Shown here in pieces: positions 12,601 to 56,769 of a stretch of DNA of 64,000 nt. The DNA lies in assembly GCF_004010195.1 (NCBI RefSeq), contig NC_057749.1:6012862-6076861 (forward strand), written 5' to 3'. The position numbers were made by a program, and so were the translations under genes. The stretch's first letter is position 1; each line of letters starts with the position of its first letter. Origin of the DNA: Chiloscyllium plagiosum. Taxonomy: Eukaryota. The notes beneath the pieces are model-generated. The model saw only the letters and a list, made by a program, of their open reading frames with translations, was not told where the DNA came from and ran no database searches.

Positions 12601-13059
12601 AATGCTCTTTTTCATAGCACTGTGGATGCACCTAGACAAAATAGAGAGGGAACCCTGTAGAATTCTCTGCCACGGAAATTGGTCAAGACCAAAATATTGA
12701 ATGTTTTCAAGAAAGAGCGAGATATAGTTCCTCGGACTAAAGGGAGACAAAGGACAGGGGAGAAGATAGTAATAGGTAACTGAGTTGGATGATCAGCCAT
12801 GATCATATTGAATAACACAACAGGCTCAAAGGGCTGAATGGCCTACTCCTGCTTCCATGTTTCCACGCTCCTGTGAAGGCACTGGAACCTGGAGCCTGGG
12901 AACAAGAGCTGACCCAGCCAGAGACACCCACATTTCATGAATGAATAATTTAAAATAAAAATCACATTACCACACTGCCATCTCTTATTGTTGACAATCC
13001 TGAACCATCACATTAGTCTTTCAGATACTTACTGTCAAGTATAAGAGAGTCTGTCTATT

Positions 13060-13890
13060 TGCCAGTGGGCCGAGGAGTGGCAGATGGAGTTTAATGTAGA
13101 TAAATATGAGGTGTTAAAACAAACCAGGGCAGGGCTTACACAGTTAATGGTAGGGCCCTGGGGAGCATTGTTGAACAGAGAGATCTAAGGGTGCAGGTAT
13201 ATAGTTCCCTTAAAATAGTGTCACAGGTAGACAAGGTGATGAAGGAGGTATTAGATACACTTGCCTTCATCCGTCAGAGCATTGATTACAGGAGTTGTGA
13301 CATCAAGTTGATGCTGGACAAATTATTGGTATGCTGCATTTGGAGTACTACATACAATTTCGATCACCTTGCCATAGGAAGGATGTAATTAAGCTGGAAA
13401 GGCTGCAAAAAAAAGATTTACAACGATGTTATCAAGACTGGAGGGTCTGAGTTATAAAAAGAGGCTGGATAGGCTGGGACTTCTATCCCTGGAGCACAGG
13501 AGACTGAGGAGTGACCTTATAAAGGTTTATAAAATCATGCAGAGTCTAGGTAAGGTGAATAGCTAATCTCTTTTCCCCGGGGTCGGGGAGTTGAAAAGTA
13601 GAGGGCACAGATTTAAAGTGAGAGGGAAAAGATTTAAAATGGACCCGAGAGACAATATTTTCACACAAGAGGTGGAACATACATGGAAGGAGCTGCCAGA
13701 GGAAGTGGTAGAGGTGGGAACAGTTACAACATTTAAAAGGTATTTGGACACGTACATGAATGGGTAAGGCTTAGAAGGGTATTGGTCAAACACAGGCAAA
13801 TGGCACAAGTTTTGTTTTGGAAACCTGGCCAGCATAGATGAGTTGGGCTGAAGGGTCTGTTTCTGTGCTGTATGACACAATGGCTCTATG
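13060..13890 (+). mobile_element. CR1/HER1 LINE 3' fragment, frameshifted
   Basis: WQMEFN..., LGVQVYSSLK, RLRSDLIKVYKIM and CR1 tail. Confidence 0.88.
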
Positions 13891-14184
13891 AAGGTACAGA
13901 ACCAGCATCGTTAGTATGGAGCAACTTTCTCATGAGGATTTGGTGCATTTTTGTCTCAGACATCAGGTGGGTATGGCTGAACAGATTTCCTCAGTTCAGA
14001 TTTGTAATGAACTTCCTCCACAGATGAACTCTTCCCCCTTATACTTACACCAATCTGTTCCAAAAGCTTTTGATTCAGAGCCTCATTGGCGCAGGGCAAT
14101 GGGGATGTGCCTGCACCCTTCCATTTGGCTCCTTTTGAGAGCTTTCAGTGCTCCCGAGGCTGCAACTGATCCATATAGAATTAG

Positions 14185-14391
14185 TACAGGTCGTTCAGCT
14201 ATAACTCGCGTTTTGTTAACACAGATTCACTGTAATGTGATTGACAAACTGGGGACACTGTTTCTAAAGCATGAATTCTTAAAACATGTAGTGGCTGAAA
14301 CGCGAATACATCGCCAACAAATTAAGCGATTTTTCTATAATGCAGGATTGCACAAGAGTGCAACTATCGTGTTCTCAAAGAACTGCCATGT
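14185..14391. mobile_element. Possible degenerate Tc1/mariner (Tigger-like) MITE
   Basis: Begins TA|CAGGTCGTTCAGCTATAAC; weak complementary end tcgtgttctcaaagaactgccatgt. Confidence 0.35.
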
Positions 14392-15432
14392 GCCCCACAT
14401 AGGTACTGAACCAGAGAGATAAAAAACAGTCTATTTTGTTATGTGTTCATTCAAACATTTCACACAAGCAATTTGGTTTACTGACATATTTTGAGGCCAC
14501 AAATAATTCTTATGCAGACTCCTAGACTGTACAGTGCATTTCGTCAAAAACAATATTATCTTTGCTCATTACCTGAACCACTTACAGAATTGGATGGAAG
14601 ACAGTGCTGCTGCTCAGTGCTCTGTTTCCCAGGTCTCTTAGAGTCACTTAGGCTTACTTGACTCATTCCTTCTTTCCCATTCTGTGGTAATTTCCCAGCT
14701 ACTCCAGAACTCTGTCTTATTTGTTGTTGAATTGACTTTGCACCTTGTCTGGAGGAGTGTGTGGCTCTCATTGAAAGTGACGTGGAATTTCAATGCGAAA
14801 TCTATTTGGAATCAAATACACCAGGCGGGGAGGAAATGATAGTTAAAGCAGGCTATTCAGAGGCTGTGAATGCAAGACATGCAAGAAGCCCTCTTTGTGG
14901 TCAGTTCAAGAGGTAGCAATATTGCCAACTTGGCTTAAAAATGGCATTTCAACTGATGGTTGAATGGCAGTAAAGTGACAAAGGAGGTTTGATGATGGCA
15001 CACTGTAGAGTTTGAGGTGATTAATATCACGCTAGCCAAAGGAAAATAAGCCTAGAGGAAATGAAAAGGGATGAACCCAACTTAACCTGTGACTCAGGTG
15101 AACTTGTATGTGGTAACACGTTCCTGACAGGAATCAAACTTGCAGGCATGACAGATCAACAATGTGTGGTCAGTATTTCTCAGTGGGTTGGACTCTTGTG
15201 TCGGAATCTGAAAGTTCTGGTTTCAAGCCGGACTCCAGAACGTACTGAAATCTAGGCTGACTCTCCAGCGCAGTAGCGAGGGAATGCTGCATTGTGGGAT
15301 GAGATGAGATGTCAAACTCAGTCCTAATCTGCCCTCTCAGTTCGATGCATTAGTTTCCATTTTAAAGAATAGAAGGTACCTCCCTGGAGTCAGCTTGGCC
15401 AGTACTTATTCCTTGTTACATTCAATTGAATA

Positions 15433-15615
15433 AAGTCAGCAGTCACACAACACCAGGTTAAAGTGCAACAGGTTTATTTGAAATCACAAGCTTTTGGAGC
15501 ACTCCTTCATTGTCAGGTTCACCTAAATGAATAAACCTGTTGGACTATAGCCTGGTGTCATGTGACTTCAGACTTTATCCACCCCAGTGCAACAACGGCA
15601 CATCCACATCATCAC
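15433..15615. mobile_element. Penelope family A inverted cassette
   Basis: acaccaggttaaagtgcaacaggtttatt versus aataaacctgttggactatagcctggtgt; flanked by TTCAATTGAATA (15421-15432) and TTCAACTGAATA (15616-15627). Confidence 0.7.
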
Positions 15616-16274
15616 TTCAACTGAATAGGTACCCCTTTACTTTAATTCCTTTGTTTGGATACAAAAAATATTTGGTTTCTTCATAGCACAATTCAATTTA
15701 ACTGTAGGTCATTCTTTCAAAATTAAGAAATCAACTACGTGGTTTTCTCGAGTGAACTCTCAGAGCAGTAATAAAACACAACAGCAAATGCATGCACAAG
15801 CAGCGGTGAAAGGTTTATAAAGGAGAGAGTGTGTGGTGCATAAAGGAAGACAAAAGACTATACAACTGAGCATAGTGATCTTAACACGCGGTTACAATCA
15901 GACCAGCCATAATTTTATTGAATAGCAGGACAGGTTGAAGTAGTTGAGCTACCTACTCGTATATACATATGTTTAGATGTTGGAGGTGTTAAGTCTGTCT
16001 CAATACCTGGCAGATATAAAACAGATGAGATGTGTTGTTCCAATTGTTGAGATAGGCCTCGCTGGACTTCTTATGTGATTCTGCCATAAATCTCAGCATG
16101 GCCACCTCACCTGGGCCCCTAAAGGATTTTATCCAAGTTAACTTTGACTCAGACTATTCATGTTTACTGATGGTTTTGTGGCTCAACTCATAGTCAGCTG
16201 AACTTTGCATCTGTGTTGCGCTTTCGTTTGCCAATACTATTTTAAGTCCATGAATGTACCCAGATATTTGTATC

Positions 16275-16606
16275 ATAGATTTCCTGAAGTGCAGATGAGG
16301 TCATTTGGCCCATCAAACCTACCCCAACTCTCAAAAGAACATCCTACCCAGACCCCACCCTGACCCACTTCCCCACTCTATCCCCATAACCCCCATTTAC
16401 CATGGTTAATGCACCTAGCCTTAGACCCTTGGACACTACAGGGGAATTTCGAACAGTAAATCTACCTAACATTTGTGATACTATGCAAGGAAATCAGAGC
16501 ACATGGCAAAAATTCATGTAGACAAGAGGATAACTTGTAAACTCCACACAAACGCTGGAACCCAACGCTGGAATCGAACCAGGGTTCTTGGCACTGTGAG
16601 ACAGCA
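16275..16606 (-). mobile_element. Old HE1-type SINE, 5' end cut by the adjacent CR1
   Basis: Degenerate core and tail; head stops at gcactgtgagacagca. Confidence 0.65.
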
Positions 16607-16733
16607 TAGAGTCTTAGAGTCATACAAGAAGGAAACAGATCCTTAGGTCCAACCATTCCTTGCTGACTATAATCCCAAACTAAACTAGTCCCACCTCCCT
16701 GCACTTAGGCCATATTCTGTCAAACATTTCTTA

Positions 16734-17060
16734 GGTTAGATTAGATTCCCTACAGTGTGGAAACAGGACCTTCATCCCAACAAGTCCATACCACTCTCCG
16801 TAGAGTAACCCACCCACACTCATTTCCCTACTTTACCCCTGACTAATACACCTAACACTATGGAGCAATTTCCCATGGCCAATCCACCTAACCTGCACAT
16901 CTTTTGGAATGTGGGAGGGAACCAGAGCATCCAGAGGAAACCCACACCGACACGGGGAGAATGTACAAGCTCCACACAGACAGTCGCCTGTGGTCGGAAT
17001 CAAATCTGGGTCCCTAGCGCTGTGAGGCAACAGTGCTAACCACTGAGCCACTGTACTGTC
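16734..17060 (-). mobile_element. HE1-type SINE inserted in CR1
   Basis: Full length, (TCTAA)n tail, short CTTA duplication at 16730-16733 and 17061-17064. Confidence 0.85.
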
Positions 17061-17186
17061 CTTATTCATGTACTTTTCTAAATGTCTTTTAAATGTTGTA
17101 ACTGTATCCGTGTCTACCATTCCCCCTGGAAGTTCATTCCACATGCAAACCACTTCCTGTTGAAAGAAATTATCCCTCATATCTTT

Positions 17187-17506
17187 AGATTAGAATAGAT
17201 TCCCTACAGTGTGGAAACAGGCTATTCGGCCCAACCAGTCCACACCAACCCTCTGAAGAGTAACCCACCCAGCCCCATTTCCCTCTGACTAATGTACCTA
17301 ACACTACGGGCAATTTAGCATGGCTAATCCACCCTAACCTGCACATCTTTGGACAGTGGGAGGAAACCGGAGCACCCGGAGGAAACCCACGCAGACACGG
17401 GGAGGATGTGCAAACTCCACACAGACAGTCGCCTGAGGCTGGAATCGAATCTGGGACCCTGGTGCTGTGAGGTAGTGGTGCTAACCACCGAGCCACCATG
17501 TCACCC
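17187..17506 (-). mobile_element. HE1-type SINE, the 3' module of the tRNA-tRNA-SINE chimera
   Basis: Full length, from GGGTGACATGGTGGCTCGGTGGTTAG to the GGAATCTATTCTAATCT tail. Confidence 0.9.
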
Positions 17507-17526
17507 TCAAATAAAGTGAGCTTCAG

Positions 17527-17591
17527 TGAGCCTAACGTGATTTGAACACACAATCTTCTGATCTGGAGTCAGATGCACTGCCGTTGTGCCA
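17527..17591 (-). pseudogene. tRNA-Trp(CCA)-derived copy lacking its first 7 nt
   Basis: Minus strand TGGCACAACGGCAGTGCATCTGACTCCAGATCAGAAGATTGTGTGTTCAAATCACGTTAGGCTCA matches vertebrate tRNA-Trp from nt 8 onward. Anticodon arm TCTGA-CTCCAGA-TCAGA is intact. Confidence 0.88.
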
Positions 17592-17602
17592 AAAGCGAAT
17601 GT

Positions 17603-17684
17603 TGGCAATAGTGGGATTTGAACCCACGCCTCCAAAGAAACTGAAACCGTAATCCAGCATCTTAGACCATTCGGCCACACTACC
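17603..17684 (-). pseudogene. tRNA-Leu(AAG-family)-derived copy, 82 nt, anticodon position reads ACG
   Basis: Minus strand GGTAGTGTGGCCGAATGGTCTAAGATGCTGGATTACGGTTTCAGTTTCTTTGGAGGCGTGGGTTCAAATCCCACTATTGCCA is colinear with vertebrate tRNA-Leu (GGTAGCGTGGCCGAGCGGTCTAAGG...GGGTTCGAATCCCACCGCTGCCA). T-arm intact, D-stem damaged, CpG-decay pattern. Confidence 0.88.
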
Positions 17685-18301
17685 ATACAATGTTAGATCT
17701 TTTTAAAATCTTTCTCCCTTCACCTTAAAAATATGTCCCCTAGTCTTGAAATGCCCCACCCCAGGGAGAAGGCAACTGCCATTCACGTTATTTATCCCCC
17801 TCATGATTTAATAAACTTCTATAAGATCATCCCTCAACCTCCTACCCTCCAGCCTATCCAGCCTCTCCCCATAACTCAAACCCTCCATTCACAGCAACAT
17901 CCTGTCAAGCTTTTCTGAACCCTTGCCAGCTGAAAAATGTCCTTCTTATAAAAAAAAAGGGAGGCCAGAACTGAACACAGTATTCCAGAAGAGGTTCCGT
18001 CAATATGTTGTTCAGCCTTAACATGACGTCCCAACTCCGATACTCAAAGGTCTGAGTGATAAAGGCAAGTGTGCTAAACAACACCTTAACCACCCTGTCT
18101 ATATGTGATGTAAACTTCAAAGAATTATGTACCAGAACCTCCTTTCTGTTCCACAACACCACTAAAGGCCTTACTTTTAATTGTATAGGTCCTGCCCTTG
18201 TTTGTTTTACCAAAGAGCAATACCTTGCGTTTATCCCAATTAAACTCCACCTGACACTCTTCAGCCCATTGACCCAATTGATCAGGATCTCTTTGTAATT
18301 A

Positions 18302-18849
18302 ACAGCTAACCCGAGAATGCAACTTTTAAAAAAAGGTTTTGTGATTTACACATGAAAGAAGTGAAACTATCACTGTAATGGGCGGCACGGTGGCACAGTG
18401 GTTAGCACTGCTGCCTCACAGCGCCTGAGACCCGGGTTCAATTCCCGCCTCAGGCGACTGACTGTGTGGAGTTTGCACGTTCTCCCCGTGTCTGCGTGGG
18501 TTTCCTCCGGGTGCTCCGGTTTCCTCCCACAGTCCAAAGATGTGCAGGGTCAGGTGAATTGGCCATGCTAAATTGCCCGTAGTGTTAGGTAAGGGGTAAA
18601 TGTAGGGGTATGGGTGGGTTTCGCTTCGGCGGGTCGGTGTGGACTTGTTGGGCCGAAGGGCCTGTTTCCACACTGTAATGTAATCTAAATCTAAATGTAT
18701 TCCAACAGATGAAAGGCTTAACAGACAATCAATTTTTCAAGGTATAATTTCAGTTACATCACACTGCAAATTTTTGCTATAAATTCTGTGTTACGATCGA
18801 GCCCCCCACTATCACCAAGGGACTATAACCTGGTGTTGTGTGATTTTTA
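18302..18849 (+). mobile_element. Penelope family A 3' fragment inserted in CR1 and itself split by a SINE
   Basis: Homologous to 39180-39586; 12-bp TSD TCTTTGTAATTA at 18290-18301 and 18850-18861. Confidence 0.75.
18380..18695 (+). mobile_element. Young, CpG-rich HE1-type SINE
   Basis: GGGCGGCACGGTGGCACAGTGGTTAG head with A/B boxes, CpGs retained, TAATCTAAATCTAAA tail, TGTA duplication. Confidence 0.92.
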
Positions 18850-19677
18850 TCTTTGTAATTAGGTAACCTTCTTCTATGTCCACTAATACCGCCAATCTTG
18901 GTGTCATCTGCAAATTTACTGACCATTGACCACTGCACCAGTTGATGGAAGTCGAAAACTAATTACCACTATGTTAGCACCCTGAATCACTAAGATGGAT
19001 TATTTCTGCATTATGTCACTTGTGCAACCTTGTTGAATTTTACAAGTGTCTCATTTCACAAGTTGGTTGCAAAGTGCACATCCTGAGGGCACGACAAGCA
19101 TGACATGAATACCTTTGTTTTTAATAATTTCAATTGATAGTTGGAAAGCCTCTCAAATTGTTGGGGCAAGTAAATTATGTTTACTGAATTTATTTATCCT
19201 TGTTCTGAACATGACTTGCAAAACCTGCTATTTCAACTCTGAATGAATTGGAAACCTAATACAGCACATACTAATTGTTTCTGTGCCTTAACAATTGGCA
19301 GTAACTAAAGGGCTATGTGGATTCCTAAACAATGACTTTTCTGAGGAATTGGTTCATTGTCAGTTTCAGAGGCAAACTGGTTCTTTACCATGACATGAAA
19401 TTAACCTTGCCTTGATCTGTGGGAAAGAACCATGCCTACTTCCTCATGATTAATGTGCAGCAATCAGTGAGCATGAGTGATGAGGCTATAAGTGTGTTGT
19501 GACTCATTCAGTCACTGTTTATGGAAAAAAAATGTCACATCACAACCATCTTAAGTGAGCACATAGAAGGCACTGATAAGTTTCAACATGGGACAACAGA
19601 TTGAGGGAAGGAGTGCGTGTATAGAATGAGCTGCCAGAGGAAGTGGTGGAGGCTGCTACAATTACAACATTTAAAAG

Positions 19678-19891
19678 CCATGATGTGGAGGAGCAGGTGT
19701 TGGACTGGGGTGGGCAAAGTTAAAAATCACACAACACCAGGTTATAGTCCAACAGGTTTATTTGGAAGTACTGGCTTTCGAAGTGCTGCTCCTTCATCAG
19801 GTGATTGTCACCACTTGATGAAAGAGCAGCGCTCCGAAAGCTAGTGCTTCCAAATAAGCCTGTTGGACTATAACCTGGCGTGTGTGATTTT
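19678..19891. mobile_element. Penelope family A fold-back cassette inside a CR1 3' end (about 19610-20045, +)
   Basis: Inverted arms of about 80 bp, each with a hammerhead-like core; 13-bp TSD CAACATTTAAAAG at 19665-19677 and 19892-19904. Confidence 0.85.
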
Positions 19892-20329
19892 CAACATTTA
19901 AAAGGCAAATGGATGGGTAAATGAATAGGAAGGGTTTAGAGGGATATGGGCCAAGTGTGGGCAAATGGAATTGGATTAGGTTGGGATATCTGGTTGGCAT
20001 GGACGAGTTGGACTGAAGGGTCTGTTTCCATGCTGTACATCTCTATGTTAAGTACAATTTTGCTTTCTGTTAACATCCCTTCAATAGATTATCTAGTTAT
20101 TATCACATTGCTATCTATAGGAACTTGCTGTGCTCACAGGAGCTCACATGCATCCTTCACAAAAACAACTGCAAAAGCTCTTAATTGGCTATAATACAAC
20201 ATTGGGATGCCCTCAGTTCATGAAAGGTACTAAATAAATGCAAGGCTTTCTTTTAGTGGTTTCTTAACTCTCATTCTGTTTTTTTTTTCAAACCAGGTAC
20301 TGTTACTGGTTGTCTCCCTTTTCATACTC

Positions 20330-21960
20330 AAAGAGATGTACAACATGGAAACAGACCTTTTGGTCCAACTCACCCATGCCGACCAGTTATCCAAAATTAA
20401 TCCAGCCCCATTAACCAGCATTTGCCTCATAACCCTCTAAGCCCATCTTATTCATATACCCACCCAGATGCCTTTTGAATGTTGTAATTGTACCAGCCCC
20501 CATCACTTCCTCTGGCAGCTCATTCCATACACGTACCACCCTCTGCGTGAAACAGTTGCCTCTAACATATGAGGAACGGCTGAGGATACTGGGATTGTAT
20601 TCGTTGGAGTTTAGAAGCTTAAGGGGAGACTTAATAGAGGCGTACAAAATAATACATGGCTTGGAAAAGGTGGATGCTAGGAAATTGTTTCAGTTAAACG
20701 AGGAGACTAGGACCCGTGGACACAGCCTTAGAATTAGAGGGGGTCATTTCAGAACAGAAATGCGGAGACATTTCTTCAACCAGAGAGTGGTGGGCCTGTG
20801 GAATTCATTGCCACGGAGTGCAGTGGAAGCCGGGACGCTAAATGTCTTCAAGGCCGAGATTGATAGATTCTTGTTGTCTAGAGGAATTAAGGGCTACGGG
20901 GAGAACGCTGGTAAGTGGAGCTGAAATGCGCATCAGCCATGATTGAATGGCGGAGTGGACTCGATGGGCCGAATGGCCTTACTTCCACTCCTATGTCTTA
21001 TGGTCTTATGGTCTTATTCCTTTTAAATCTTTCCTCTCTCAGCTTAAGCATATACCTCTAGTTCTGGACTCCCCCACCCCAGGGAAAAGACATTGTCTAT
21101 TCACCTTATCCATGCTCCACATGGTTTTATAAACATCTGCAAGGTCATCCCTCAGACTCCGACACTCCAGGGAAATAGCTCCAATCTATTCAACCACTCC
21201 CTAGAGCTCAAACCCTCCAACCTTGGCAACATCCTTGTGAAGCTTTTCTGAACCTTTACATGTTTCACAACATCCTTCCTATAGCAAGGATACCAAAATT
21301 GAATGTAGTATTCCAACAGTGGCCTAACCAGTGGTTTGTGCAGCCACAACATGGCCTACCAACTCCTACACTCAATGTACTGACCAATAAAGGCAAACAT
21401 ATCAAATGCCTTCTTCACTATCCTATCTAACTGCAACTCCACTTTCAAGGAGCTATGAACCTGCACTCCAAGGACTCTTTGCTCAGCTACACTCCCAGGA
21501 CATTATCATTAAGTATATAAGTCCTGCTCAGATTTGCCTTTCCAAAATGTAGCATCTCACATTTATCTAAATTAAATTCCATCTGCCACTCCTCAAGATC
21601 TTGTTGTACTCTGAAGTAAACTTACTGTCCAGTACGTCTCCAATTTTGGTGTCATATGCAAACTTACTAACCATACTTCCTCTGCTCACATTCAAATCAT
21701 TTATATAAATGATGAAAAACAGTGAAATCAGCATCAAACCCTTGTGGCACACCACTGGTCACAGGCCTCCAGTCAGAAAAGCAACCCTCCACCACCACCA
21801 ACAACCTGCCCACAACCGATGTCAGACTCTAGTGGCCTATATTACCCTGGCTTTTCCTTACCACTTTGCTTAAATAATGGAACCACATTAGCCAATCTCC
21901 AATCTTCCGGCACCTCACCTATGGCTATTGATGATAGAAATATCTCAGCAAGGGCCCCAG
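20330..21960 (-). mobile_element. CR1/HER1 LINE fragments, interrupted
   Basis: ORFs with LVRPLLEYYIQFW, KFAYDTKIG (degenerate FADD) and GEVPEDWRLANVVPLFK. Confidence 0.85.
20562..21016 (+). mobile_element. Young CR1-clade LINE 3' end (different subfamily) inserted antisense into an older CR1
   Basis: Uninterrupted LTYEERLRILGLYSLEFRSLRGDLIEAYKI...GKWS*, 3' stem-loop and (TATGGTCT)n tail. Confidence 0.9.
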
Positions 21961-23352
21961 CAAACACTTCCCTTGCTTCCCACAGAGGTTTAGGATACAC
22001 CTGATAAGGACCCAAGGATTTATCCACATTAATGTGTCCTTTAAGAGTGTAGAAATAATAAAAATCTAAATGTTTTGTCACCCAACACTTCAAGTTGGAC
22101 TTTACCCAACCGTCTTAATAGCATGAGAAAAGATTCCAGAAGCTTCTATCTGCCCAGAAACTCTGAATATTTATATAATGTCATGTTCTCCATTATATAT
22201 CCTAGACTAGTTGAATTTCTTGGTCTGATGGTTTTAATGATGAGAGATCATTGTTCCCCCAGAGTATTCAATTACCTCAAACTAAATGTACTTGCATTAT
22301 TGACTGTTTAATGCATAATTAATCGTTTAACTACCTACTGCATAAAAGATATTTAATGAATAGATACAAATACTTAAAAAATCTTTACTTTCAAATCAAT
22401 AAAATGGTGTCTATGTTACAATAGCGTGATCAATAATTTCTGATACCTTATATTGGCTTGCATTTCCCCTTTAATTCCCCCTGATACTTGACTCCACTTT
22501 TGTCTACTTTTAGGGCTCTTTCAATTTGGGTGGTACTGACATTTCCTTGTTGGGTGCAGGCAATATCAGACTCACCCCGGGGAAAAGACCTTGTCTATTT
22601 ACCCTATCCATGCCCCTCATGATTTTATGAACATCTGTAAGGTCACCCCTCAGCCTCCAACACTCCAGGGAAAATAGCCCCAATCTATTCAACCACTCCC
22701 TAGAACTCAAACCCTCAAACCCTGGCCTGTGATAAACCAAGTGGAGTTATATAGAATTGAAGGAGGCTATTCAGCTCAAGAAAGCTATGAAGATTATATT
22801 AACAGCTATCCACTCCCTTACTACTTTCCCATTATCTGAAAATCTTTTCTCTTCTCCATTTCCATCTGGAAAGTTTTGATTGAATCTGCTTCCTTTACTC
22901 TTTCATGGAGCATATTTCAGATCAAATCAATGCACAACAACCAATAATTTATCTTCATCTGACTCCTTATATCTGAAGCAATGAAGAGATCCCCAAATAA
23001 GACAATGATTCTGCACTTTTCAGTCACAACATGCCACACTTACTTTGCTTTTTTTTTTATTGGATGTAGGCATCAATGACAAGGTCAGCTTTTGTCACCC
23101 ATTCCTAATTGCCCTTGGACTGATTGGTATGTCAGTTTGAAGCCCTGAAGAGTCAATCACATTGCCATGAGTCTCAAGTCAAATGTAGGCCAGACCAGGT
23201 AGGGATGGCAGATTGTAGCTATCTTTGCTAAAGGAGATTAGCGAACCTGATGGAGTTGGATGACTATCAATGATAGATTCATGGTCACTGTCAATCAGAC
23301 TAGATTTATATTCCAGATTAGAAATTGGTGGGATTTGAACCCGTGCCCAAAT

Positions 23353-25635: not shown

Positions 25636-26085
25636 GGCGAAAGTGAGGACTGCAGATGCTGGAGATTAGAGTCAAGTTGGAGTAATGCTGGAAAAGCACA
25701 GCAAGTCAGGCAGCATCCGAGGAGCAGGAAAATCGATATTTCGGGCAAAAGCCCTTCATCAGGAATGTCAATTTTCCTGCTCCTCGGATGCTGCCTGACC
25801 TGCTGTGCTTTTTCAGTGCCACTTTAATCTTGACTCTGATTTCCAGCATCTGCAATCCTCACTTTCACCTAGTTGATTTTAACTTTACTGCGAATCCTCT
25901 TCCAAGGATGCCTACCTTGAAGAAGTTCTCCTCCTCTCTCTACAAGGATCTCAGTGAGTCTCTCTCTCTCACTGCAAGCCCCAGGTCATCTCCTCTGCCA
26001 TTCCTGATAAAACCCATTTGCCCGAAATGTCGATTTTCCTGGTCCTCAGATGTTGCCTGACCTGCTGTGCTTTTCCAGCACCAAT
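25636..26085. mobile_element. Penelope family B: inverted terminal repeat, direct repeat running into a probable ORF start, then a second direct repeat
   Basis: 25636-25762 is the reverse complement of about 25766-25870; MPTLKKFSSSLYKDLSES follows; the repeat restarts at about 26000. Confidence 0.75.
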
Positions 26086-39179: not shown

Positions 39180-39836
39180 AACTGCATTAATCCATTTAAG
39201 GTTCGATAAATCCCTTTTATAGAATAGAATCAGTCTGAACATTGGGGCACAGATAGCCTTACACAAGGCACCTCGAATTTTCAATGCATTACCTGGGCAG
39301 ACATGGCACCTATTGTACACTTGAGAACATTACTTTAAAAAGTTCTACGATTTACATATGAAAGAACTGAAACCAACATGGTCATTCTAAAAGATGAGAA
39401 ACTTAACAAACAATCCAGGTCTTTTTCAATATATAATTTCAGTTACATCACACTGTAAACTTTTGCTATATATTCTGTGTCTTACGATCTTATACTCCAC
39501 AACCACCTGATAAAGGAGCAGCGTTCTGAAAGCTAGTGCTTCCAATTAAACTTGTTGGATTATAACCTGCTGTTGTGTGATTTTTAGTAGAAAGTGAGGA
39601 CTGCAGATGCTGGAGATCAGAGTGGAGAGTGTGGTGCTGGAAAAGCACAGCAGGTCAGGCAGCATCCGAGGAGCAGGAGATTGATGTTTTGGGCGTAAGC
39701 CTTTCATCAGGAATTCCCTAAATGTCAATTCTCCTGCTCCTCGGATGCTGCCTGACCTGCTGTGCTTTTCCAGCACCACACTCTTGTGTGATTTTTAATT
39801 TTGTACACCCCAGTTCAACACTAGCACCTCCAAATG
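39180..39836 (+). mobile_element. Penelope family A 3' end with a family B fold-back cassette (39587-39783) inserted in its terminal repeat
   Basis: 14-bp TSD TTGTGTGATTTTTA at 39573-39586 and 39784-39797. Confidence 0.8.
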
Positions 39837-41430: not shown

Positions 41431-41839
41431 ATTTTATTGGCGCATCAGTTTTTTTGGCGCATCAGTTAATTTAACTCCTCTACATCTACATTAAGATAGA
41501 TGTTCTATACCTTGTTCTTGAGCTCTCTATTCAAAGCCTGACTGATAGCATGACATCCTGCCCTTTGGATGGAGAGAGGAGGCAGTTCCAGTATCCAGCG
41601 CAGCCACAATGGGGATTGAATGCATTGTCACCAATCCACTCCATATCAGAGATGATGGCATCATAATGTGTTCAATGCGCGGGTTGTCCAGTGCTAAGAG
41701 GCCAAATGCTTTGGAGACATGGGTTCAAATCCTACTCTGGCAGGAATGGTGCAATTTGAATTCCATAAGATCTAGCATTAAGACAAACTAACCTAACGGT
41801 GACTGCATAATTACTGTGAAAACCATTTGCTTCTCTTGT

Positions 41840-44561: not shown

Positions 44562-45851
44562 TGTTATGGACCAGGCCAGACCCCTCAAAACATTTCAAAA
44601 AGGTGGCCCAGTCCTGACCTTTCTAGTTGTTTTAAGCAGGTGTAAAGTGGATATTCCAGGAGTAATGCAGCCAGTTAAACCACTGTTTTAGAGCGTAGAA
44701 CATAGAACATAGAACAATACAGCATAGAACAGGGCCCTTTGGCCCTCGATGTTGCACCGACCTGTGAACTATTCTCAGCTCGTCCCCCTACACTATCCCA
44801 AAATCATCCATGTGCTTATCTAAGGATGGTTTAAATCTCCCTAATGTGGCTGAGTTGACTACATTAGCAGGTAGGGCATTCCACGCCCTTACCACTCTCT
44901 GCGTAAAGAATCTGCCTCTGACATCTGTCTTAAATCCATCACCTCTCAATTTGTAGTTATGCCCCCTCGTACAAGCTGACATCATCATCCTAGGAAAAAG
45001 TCATTCACTGTCTACCCCGTTCTAATCCTCTGATCACCTTGTATTTCAACAAAACAGAATTTATTTACAGACTACCAAATGAAATAAAACAGAATATAGA
45101 ATAACTTAACCTATCCGAAAACCTAAGTGACTCTATTTCAACTTGTTCCAATTGGTTGCTGTTCCAATTTCCTGCAACATCCCCAAAAACACCCCCTTGG
45201 CAAAAAAAAGGTTAAATCAAGCGCAGGTTCTTACAGGAGAGAGATGTTGGAGAGAGAGTCAACCAGAAAGCCTTTGCTGAATCAGGGAACCTCTTTCCCC
45301 AGCAGTTTTAAACTAAGGAACTGGAATATAAACTTGGGCTGGGAGAACTGGCCACTCCCCTTTCATTGCACCACTATTTTTTTAAAGAGATAAACCCTAA
45401 AGACCTCCTCTGATTATTGACTTAGGCAGTATTTGCTCGCTATTGTTAAAGTAGCCGGCATGGGTGGCACAGTGGCACAGTGGTTAGCACTGCTGCCTCA
45501 CAGCGCCAGAGACCCGGGTTCAAACTGTGTGGAGTTTGCACGTTCTCCCCGTGTCTGCGTGGGTTTCCTCCGGGTGCTCTCGTTTCCTTCCACAGTCCAA
45601 AGATGTGCAGGTCAGGTGAATTGGCCATGCTAAATTGTCTGTAGTGTTAGGTAAAAAGGGGTACATGTAGGGGTATGGGTGGGTTGCGCTTCGGTGGGTC
45701 GGTGTGGACTTGTTGGGCCGAATGGCCTGTTTCCACACTGAAAGTAATCTAATCTAGCCAGTTCAGATATACCAGCACCTCTACATTTATGACCTCTCTC
45801 AAAAACAAAACAAAGGCAAAATAACTTTGTTAAAGGGGCAACATCATCGCA
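44562..45851 (-). mobile_element. Solo LTR interrupted by a CR1 3' end (about 44690-45040) and an HE1 SINE (45461-45757)
   Basis: TG...CA termini (TGTTATGG ... CATCGCA), flanks GTTA/GTTC, colinear with the 49432-50053 copy. Confidence 0.6.
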
Positions 45852-46964
45852 GTTCTCACTAGAATGCTTATGCGTACCATTATCATTGATGTACCACAGT
45901 AGCCCCGACTTGTCCATTGCCCTAATTCCAATTCCTCTCAATTTAGACCTCAACTACATAAGCAGCTACCACCTCCACATTTTTATCCCTCCCCGGTAAT
46001 TGTAATTGTGGAGTAAGCCAAAAACAAACTTCGGGAATTAGCACTTGTGCAGCTAAATGTGGAAAGTAGCATTCCAGCTATCTGACCCACCCACAAGCTT
46101 TTTTTTATTCATTCATGGGATGGGGGCCATCTAGGCCAGCATTAATTTCCCATCCCAGAGGGCAGTTAAGAGTCAACCACATTGCTGTGGGTCTAGAGTC
46201 ACATGTAGGCCAGATCAGGTAAGGATGGCCGTTTCCTTCCTTAAAGGATATTAATGAACCAGATGGGCTTTTTTAAAGCAAACAATGGTTATTATTGGAT
46301 TCTTCAATTCCAGGTTTTCTTTTATTAAGTTCAAAGTTCGCCACTTGACATGGCAGGATTCAAACTCAGATCTTCAGAACATTCCCTGAGCCTCAGGATT
46401 AACAGTCCAGTGATAATACTGCTCAGCCACCACCTCCCTGCTATAGGCTGCACTATAGCAGTAGCTTGCTGATTGGTTCACAACATTGATATACAGGCAG
46501 CCCCCTGGGATGCAACTGGGTTCCACTCTGGTGCTCGGTTGCAAGTCGATCTGTACATAACTCGGAATACAATATAGCTCAATGTAAAGCAGCTGTTCAT
46601 AAGCACTGGAGATCTTCATTAAAACCATGTACGGAACTGAGTTCGTTAAGTCAGACTTCCATAAATCGAGAAACCATCCCCATCGCCTCAGCCACACATG
46701 CAATGGAGTGAAATTGATCCAGTTTCCCAGGACCAAGTACAGCCAGTAAATTCAGGAGTTTGTGAAGTTTTGGCAACACAAAAAGAGGGAACAGGAAAGG
46801 GTCATTAGATCTCTTCCAGCCTGCTCCACCATTCAAAAAGACTATGGCTGATCTGATTGTAAACTCAACATTTGTGTTCCCACTTATACTTTTGATACTC
46901 TCCCCATACCCACCTCCAACTTAAACAAGGGTCTACCTGCTTCTGCATTATAAATCTCCCCACT

Positions 46965-55995: not shown

Positions 55996-56769
55996 TCAAC
56001 TCTTAAAACAAGACAATTATCGGTGATTCTGTGAAAGTTATGTGGTGTGTGGATATCATTGATGTAGCTGTCTCTTTGAATTAAGGACTGAGTAAAGGAC
56101 AAATGCGAAGGTCAAAGCCATCAATCTTCCACCATATCTGTTGTCCCACCAGGAAGTACACAGAAAGTCCATTACCGCTATTCAATCACCTTAGTGGATT
56201 TTATAGGGCACTACCTTTCATATTTAATTTCAACATCCTTGAAACTGGACTGTGTGACAGTATAGTGATGCTTCAAGTTGGCATTATATTCTGGGCAATG
56301 GTTTAACCGAAGAGGTTGGGCAGAGGTAACACTCTCAACATCAGTAGGTTGACATCAACAATTGAGTAACTTGCTCCCACGCTGTTTCTAAGTAAAGTCT
56401 AAAGAAGTAAACTCCTGAACCAAGCATGGAGCAAACTAGTCAAAAGCCCTTTCTCGGAGATATTGAAGAGTTACCTGCCCATGTACCTGGCCTTTGGGCA
56501 TCCCTGATGTGAATCTTTCCACCATTTGTAGTTGTACCTTTAGCTCCCTGGGACCTAAACTGTGGACTTCCTTCCCTGAAACTATCCTCTCACTTTCTCT
56601 CTATCCTCCTTTCAGACACTCCTTAAAACCCATATCGCCCAGCAAGCTTTTGCTCATCTGACCCAATATGTCTTTTTTGCCTCTTCACTGGGCCTTGCTG
56701 GCTGGCTGAGTCAACATTTATTGCCCATCCCTAGTTGCCCTTGAGAAGGTGCTGGTGAATCACCCTCAA

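Follow-up and report, generated by a model that had tools for sequence, protein, structure and literature searches.

Tripartite chimeras, in which three RNA copies stand between direct repeats, are described in PMC2104539 for Magnaporthe (WEIRD/Mg-SINE/MGL) and for the mouse (B2/U6/L1), where they are ascribed to two template switches. For passerine birds, PMC5729268 proposes that the CR1 enzyme switched template from the RNA of a short interspersed element (SINE) to a tRNA, a step leading from TguSINE1 to PittSINE. Template switching is also cited in PMC4476161 as a source of the SINE tails that come from tail-specific long interspersed elements (LINEs), and the same article cites Schmitz et al. 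2004 for the pre-tRNA and “tailless” tRNA retropseudogenes of mammals. Here, we describe a locus in the shark Chiloscyllium plagiosum that belongs beside these cases. It lies in a stretch of 64,000 nucleotides (nt) of assembly GCF_004010195.1 (NC_057749.1, positions 6,012,862-6,076,861, forward strand), which is called the window in the following and in which position 1 is the first letter. Direct reading of the minus strand from 17696 to 17187 gives a unit of 510 bases that joins, head to tail, a copy of tRNA-Leu, a truncated one of tRNA-Trp and a full SINE. The presence of this Leu-Trp-SINE unit is confirmed. Its most probable origin, to which we assign a probability of about 0.6, is a one-off tripartite chimeric retrocopy, that is, a single retro-insertion by a LINE enzyme which switched template twice onto 3'-unprocessed transcripts of RNA polymerase III (Pol III).

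Like the chimeras of PMC2104539, the shark unit consists of three RNA copies head to tail in one orientation, with the element that is recognised by the enzyme at the 3' end and with a single pair of direct repeats. It differs from them in that the 3' part is a SINE and not a LINE, in that both passengers are tRNA precursors, and in the length of the direct repeat, which is 6 base pairs (bp) here and 14-16 bp there; the presumed enzyme is of the tail-specific LINE type, and the host is a cartilaginous fish. In the birds, as outlined in PMC5729268, the template switch gave the SINE a new head in place of the old one, and an active family arose from it. The shark unit, by contrast, retains the whole SINE, onto which two tRNAs are stacked, each together with its terminator, and the window shows no family of such units. 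With the U6/L1 and small-RNA/L1 chimeras (PMC6789731; 10.1101/2025.02.02.635956; PMC4476161) it shares an oligo-U-ended Pol III transcript that sits in sense orientation at the 5' end of a retroelement and was inserted once. However, U6/L1 is explained in PMC6789731 by RtcB ligation to a 5'-truncated L1, while the acceptor element in the shark is full length. The mammalian pre-tRNA retropseudogenes, in the account cited above, are likewise copies of tRNA precursors and imply that unprocessed nuclear RNA was recruited, but they are solitary and ascribed to L1, whereas the precursors of the shark unit ride on a SINE. The kind of event is known, and what sets the shark case apart is the SINE as 3' partner, the two sense pre-tRNAs with terminators and the cartilaginous-fish host. 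A literature search that covered titles and the openings of abstracts, with subscription journals outside its range, found no report of such chimeras in sharks.

The unit and its host LINE

The insertion and its flanks are made up of the following features, given in the order in which the minus strand is read; TSD stands for target-site duplication.

17703-18345, minus strand: host LINE upstream of the insertion, with a decayed reading frame (LINE alignment, translation)
17702-17697, minus strand: upstream copy of the TSD, 6 bp, AAAGAT (AAGAT after A), aligned to other LINE copies
17696-17685, minus strand: leader CTAACATTGTAT, 12 nt, before the Leu-like tRNA, presumably a pre-tRNA 5' leader
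17684-17603, minus strand: decayed class-II tRNA of the Leu-AAG type, complete with 82 nt (Rfam, ARAGORN, comparison with human tRNA-Leu-AAG-1-1)
17602-17591, minus strand: Leu trailer ACATTCGC (8 nt) and TTTT, similar to a Pol III terminator; the last T is possibly U8 of the Trp copy
17590-17527, minus strand: body of tRNA-Trp(CCA) without its first 7-8 nt, from G9 or U8 to the discriminator A (Rfam alignment)
17526-17509, minus strand: Trp trailer CTGAAGCTCAC (11 nt) and TTTATTT, terminator-like
17508-17507, minus strand: dinucleotide GA between the T run and the SINE (sequence, alignment of SINE 5' ends)
17506-17187, minus strand: tRNA-headed SINE, full length at 320 nt, whose LINE-like 3' tail ends in ATCTATTCTAATCT (BLASTN, consensus, tail comparison)
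17186-17181, minus strand: downstream copy of the TSD, 6 bp, AAAGAT, aligned to other LINE copies
17180-17060, minus strand: 3' region of the host LINE, resumed after the insertion (BLASTN, alignment with other LINE copies)

A preliminary description of this DNA had given the order as leader, tRNA-Leu, trailer with TTTT, tRNA-Trp, trailer with TTTATTT, GA and full-length SINE, and had stated that neither tRNA carries an added CCA. The order is borne out by the reading of the minus strand together with the Rfam and SINE alignments, and the sequence agrees on the second point as well, with ACA next to the 3' end of the Leu copy and CTG next to that of the Trp copy. All three parts have the same orientation and are spaced by just 12 and 20 nt of trailer. 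The two tRNA copies thus present themselves as pre-tRNAs, having a leader and/or a trailer that ends in an oligo-T run and no added CCA.

The arrangement of tRNA, tRNA and SINE is not due to chance. Only two Rfam matches reach the gathering score in the 64 kb, and both belong to the tRNA model, lie 4 nt apart on the same strand and are located directly 5' of the SINE. A permissive Rfam scan yields 16 matches in the window, with only one further match to the tRNA model, which is sub-threshold with 21.8 bits at 46346-46436. T runs are found at both internal junctions, 8 and 11 nt past the tRNA 3' ends, and the next part begins 0 and 2 nt later. With the T-run frequencies of the window itself (TTTT has a frequency of 0.008 at a fixed position), the joint chance of T runs at both junctions is about 6e-4.

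Comparison with other copies of the host LINE, for which a BLASTN search of 17800-17100 against the window gave seven matches upstream of the insertion and one downstream, defines the insertion site. Six of the seven other LINE copies place the two halves of the host LINE at the same consensus positions. The hexamer AAAGAT is present only once in those six, and both flanking copies of it map to the same single position; the seventh LINE copy is itself interrupted at the same point. Therefore, the 510 bp are bracketed by a true, if short, TSD. No internal duplications were seen on reading the sequence of the unit. The claim that the unit interrupts a colinear host element with ATCTTT on both sides holds through this alignment to six of the seven copies, whereas the name CR1, which had been attached to the host, does not have the same standing. 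The label is tentative and comes from a motif in the translation of the host LINE; Pfam matched none of 12 reading frames from the window, and a protein search with the 146-aa frame of the host LINE gave no match.

About 130 bp downstream of the unit, a second, independent copy of the same SINE (17051-16731, minus strand) breaks the host LINE again at about 17051. Its first bases are missing or diverged, and it is flanked by a duplication of at most 3-4 bp (TAAG/AAG). The proximity of this second SINE is a measure of how densely this LINE copy was hit.

The tRNA and SINE parts

The Rfam tRNA model matches the Leu-like part at 17684-17603 with 38.6 bits over model positions 1-71, at the gathering score for the 64-kb window, and the alignment contains a variable-arm insert, giving a class-II cloverleaf with a long variable arm. 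Its discriminator is A, and A73 has the role of discriminator in Leu tRNAs. A comparison by eye with the human tRNA-Leu-AAG-1-1 sequence printed in PMC10359600 needs no gaps and finds 68 of the 82 positions identical, with 13 transitions and 1 transversion making up the 14 differences, and by the same comparison the copy is clearly nearer to Leu-AAG than to the three other Leu and four Ser sequences in the table of that article. The anticodon is ACG, one transversion away from AAG and not that of a Leu tRNA. It is because of this change that ARAGORN, which reports the copy as the one gene in the whole window, names it Arg(ACG), with 85 nt. The “complete tRNA-Leu body” of the preliminary description is therefore correct for the 82-nt class-II body, which matches Leu-AAG, but not for the anticodon, and the Leu-like copy is a pseudogene and no working Leu tRNA.

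Seven of the 14 changes in the Leu part fall on CpGs, touching six of the seven CpGs of the human reference, and outside of CpGs 7 of 68 positions (10%) have changed. Together with the ratio of observed to expected CpG in the window, which is 0.28, this pattern is as expected for methylation decay. The T arm of the Leu copy has a single BLASTN match of 28 nt, which is the head of a different SINE at 41709-41736.

The Trp part is matched by the tRNA model with 40.9 bits at 17598-17527, again at the gathering score. In the Rfam alignment the D, anticodon and T arms are paired, and the anticodon loop CUCCAGA contains the anticodon CCA. The 7 nt that are modelled as the 5' acceptor strand are in fact the Leu trailer and the T run, and three of the seven acceptor pairs are broken. 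Therefore, the Trp copy begins at U8 or G9, a start that is placed by the covariance-model alignment, and the T at 17591 is ambiguous between the end of the Leu T run and U8 of Trp. The earlier placement of the Trp copy from nt 8 to the 3' end stands as far as the truncated 5' end and the intact sequence up to the discriminator A are concerned, with nt 8 to be read as nt 8 or 9. In the BLASTN search of 17800-17100 against the window, no match was found to the Trp body, to the leader or to the trailers.

The break at nt 8/9 could be explained by a block at a methylated G9, an idea that is speculative and was dropped from our main account. In the data presented in PMC7293042, human Trp-CCA is among the position-9-modified tRNAs only at lower confidence, and the position-9 signal is very low in reads that reach past the mature tRNA ends.

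Aligned with the 5' ends of 18 further copies, which begin with GGGYGGCACGG, the SINE part has its first bases, GGGTGACATGG, in register and is therefore full length. Of 40 BLASTN matches of 17800-17100 in the window, 30 are other copies or pieces of the same SINE and one is the match to itself. Neither tRNA-like sequence nor the Trp trailer is present upstream of any of the 18 other SINE 5' ends in the window. Compared to a consensus of 17 copies from the window, the SINE has 32 mismatches in 313 aligned positions (10.2%), which is within the range of 6.1-21.0% among the copies. Just ahead of the short-repeat tail, the final 38 nt of the SINE agree with the 3' end of a LINE in the window at 27 positions in an ungapped comparison. 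This similarity is modest but exceeds that of all 500 shuffles (maximum 25, mean 18), while a gapped alignment of the two tails scores no better than the best shuffle. A SINE tail that resembles a LINE 3' end can supply the start site for the LINE enzyme; tails of this kind, and A-rich tails as well, are absent from the tRNA pieces. The HE1/V-SINE family of sharks and rays has a tRNA-related head, a conserved body and a 3' tail in common with its partner LINE; a tRNA-related head and a LINE-like tail are seen in the present SINE, for which HE1 is a tentative name. A table row in PMC3747384 lists HE1 for sharks and rays, with a tRNA head and HER1 as partner.

The dinucleotide GA in front of the SINE consists either of extra bases from a template jump or of the first two bases of the SINE transcript. 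Another copy of the SINE, at 55999 (minus strand), is likewise preceded by TTGA (TTGAGGGTG in both), which may be chance or may reflect sources that are transcribed from a few bases upstream. A copy at 45462 (plus strand) has a possible 7-bp duplication, TAGCCGG / TAGCCAG, in which CAT separates the upstream repeat from the start of the SINE. Additional bases at the 5' junction, such as the GA of the chimera, may be common in this SINE family.

Origin of the insertion

The unit can be accounted for by one act of retroposition. A LINE reverse transcriptase that shares its 3' tail with the SINE would have nicked the old LINE copy, primed on the tail of the SINE RNA and copied it up to the 5' end, and the full-length SINE with its LINE-like tail is what is observed. 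From there the enzyme would have jumped to a nascent pre-tRNA-Trp, onto its unprocessed 3' end of oligo-U, and would have copied first the trailer and then the body, as far back as about nt 8/9. The traces of this step are the Trp trailer with its T run, the absent CCA and the missing 5' acceptor strand. A second jump to the oligo-U end of a pre-tRNA-Leu of the AAG type, which would have been copied through the 12-nt leader to its 5' end, matches the structure found there. Joining of the cDNA to the target would have left the one observed 6-bp duplication AAAGAT. Later decay, of about 10% at non-CpG sites, removed the Leu anticodon and most CpGs, and the unit is today a dead pseudogene cluster.

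The single TSD without any internal TSD, the common orientation, the junctions at T runs and the tail-less tRNAs all point towards a joining at the RNA level and one integration by way of the SINE tail. The preliminary description had proposed such double jumping of the LINE enzyme, and this interpretation is supported in part, namely by the one TSD, the same orientation, the T-run junctions, the SINE with its own 5' end and the similar decay of the parts, from which the jumps themselves are deduced.

Several points weigh against this explanation. A TSD of 6 bp is short, and other SINE copies in the window have equally short or unclear duplications; for this reason, the TSD carries weight only through the LINE alignment. 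The terminator-like run of the Trp copy, TTTATTT, is without an uninterrupted T4. The tRNA parts associated with L1 in human and primate chimeras are described in 10.1101/2025.02.02.635956 as mostly antisense halves, whereas those of the shark unit are sense, and one of them is complete with leader and trailer. The Leu part (10% outside of CpG) and the SINE part (10.2%) are about equally decayed and may well be of the same age, but this comparison is rough, as it uses a human tRNA as stand-in and a consensus of 17 window copies from mixed subfamilies. The evidence on copy number and on the arrangement of the source is confined to the 64-kb window. Finally, the double switch offers no reason for the second jump to fall at nt 8/9 of Trp.

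Instead of a one-off chimera, the unit could be a low-copy composite element, in which transcription of an older Leu-Trp-SINE fusion at another locus started at the Leu promoter, passed both T runs to the SINE tail and gave a single RNA that was retroposed here. We regard this as unlikely, even though internal promoter regions can still be recognised in the Leu copy, its leader has a plausible length, and the LINE enzyme could use such a transcript by way of the SINE tail at its 3' end. T runs such as TTTT stop Pol III, and the polymerase would need to pass TTTT right behind the Leu copy and TTTATTT further on. Within the window, neither junction is found a second time when about 15% mismatch is allowed, and the same is true of the leader and the trailers; the leader also has no other copy at ≤1 mismatch, nor the Trp trailer at ≤2 mismatches, in sequence that contains about 30 pieces of the SINE and in which 0 of 18 other SINE 5' ends have the composite form. 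The many dispersed copies with the same junctions by which a composite SINE family would be known are thus not present within the window. The gain of new SINE heads in this way is proposed for birds in PMC5729268. Even so, the original fusion would still require a template switch, which places its origin merely one step earlier. It is more doubtful still that the unit represents an undescribed elasmobranch lineage of composite SINEs, in which a tRNA-Leu promoter, captured by two template jumps, drives read-through into an older SINE body. If true, such a lineage would be a case of head acquisition by a tail-specific LINE/SINE pair at an intermediate stage, with both terminators still in place.

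A prior end-to-end ligation of the three RNAs by an enzyme of the RtcB type, as for U6/L1, with subsequent copying from the SINE tail, would result in an identical DNA structure, and cleavage that leaves a 5'-OH could have produced the Trp fragment from nt 8/9. Nascent pre-tRNAs end in a 3'-OH, and the 5' end of the SINE is complete, as in a primary transcript. According to PMC6789731, RtcB joins oligo-U-ended U6 to other RNAs in human cells, but this needs a donor with a 2',3'-cyclic phosphate and an acceptor with a 5'-OH, and it was much reduced when the donor ended in a 3'-OH or the acceptor began with a 5'-triphosphate. The additional GA at the junction is also more in line with nucleotides added during a jump than with a clean ligation. 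We consider ligation very unlikely overall, and the preliminary description, which had named it as an alternative, put forward what is the weaker option at the Trp/SINE junction, because the end chemistry of RtcB is at odds with the apparent primary 5' end of the SINE. The chances are smaller again for a separate arrival of the parts or a capture at the DNA level, in which the SINE came first and the tRNA pieces were added later at its 5' edge, as nested retro-insertions or as filler DNA at a break. While the window is dense in nested repeats, with a second SINE 130 bp downstream in the same LINE, no internal TSDs surround the Trp or Leu pieces, and two later events would each have had to strike the exact 5' boundary. 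One orientation throughout, junctions at T runs and tRNA pieces without a LINE-like or A-rich tail for priming also speak against it and are accommodated by the double template switch.

Implications and further observations

If the reading as a doubly switched retrocopy is true, the locus preserves with unusual clarity two jumps in succession, both onto the oligo-U ends of unprocessed Pol III transcripts, by an enzyme that belongs to a LINE/SINE pair dependent on a specific 3' tail. It would support published ideas from birds, mammals and fungi on the pick-up of nascent RNA in the nucleus and on the gain of SINE heads, adding the cartilaginous fishes to these groups, and it would provide a route for the spread of tRNA pseudogenes where the main LINEs cannot copy tail-less RNAs. 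As a route for building composite SINEs it is no new idea, since template switching for SINE heads and tails is in print (as proposed in PMC5729268 and cited in PMC4476161). The unit is one decayed locus that shows no sign of function, and its value is that of an example and of a prompt for a genome-wide census; interest would be higher only with a genome-wide family or with a systematic preference for oligo-U-ended acceptors.

Among 24 sequencing runs, those of one organism (A) hold 0.45-0.65 of the sampled words from 13000-22000, and those of two others (B and C) hold 0.18-0.37. These shares carry no information on the insertion, its copy number or the empty site.

Heads of a different tRNA-derived SINE family are located at 41670-41760 (plus strand) and 46346-46436 (minus strand), each followed by the shared segment ...TTTGAA(T/C)T..ATAA. 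The former is the source of the 28-nt match to the Leu T arm and the latter that of the sub-threshold tRNA-model match of 21.8 bits. At 39652-39758, models of microRNA (miRNA) hairpins give near-equal sub-threshold matches of about 26 bits on both strands, indicating a near-perfect palindrome of roughly 100 nt, possibly a small inverted-repeat element. A hairpin at 25702-25801 (minus strand), which two miRNA precursor models match with 34.1 and 27 bits and thus far short of their gathering scores, adjoins a LINE copy.

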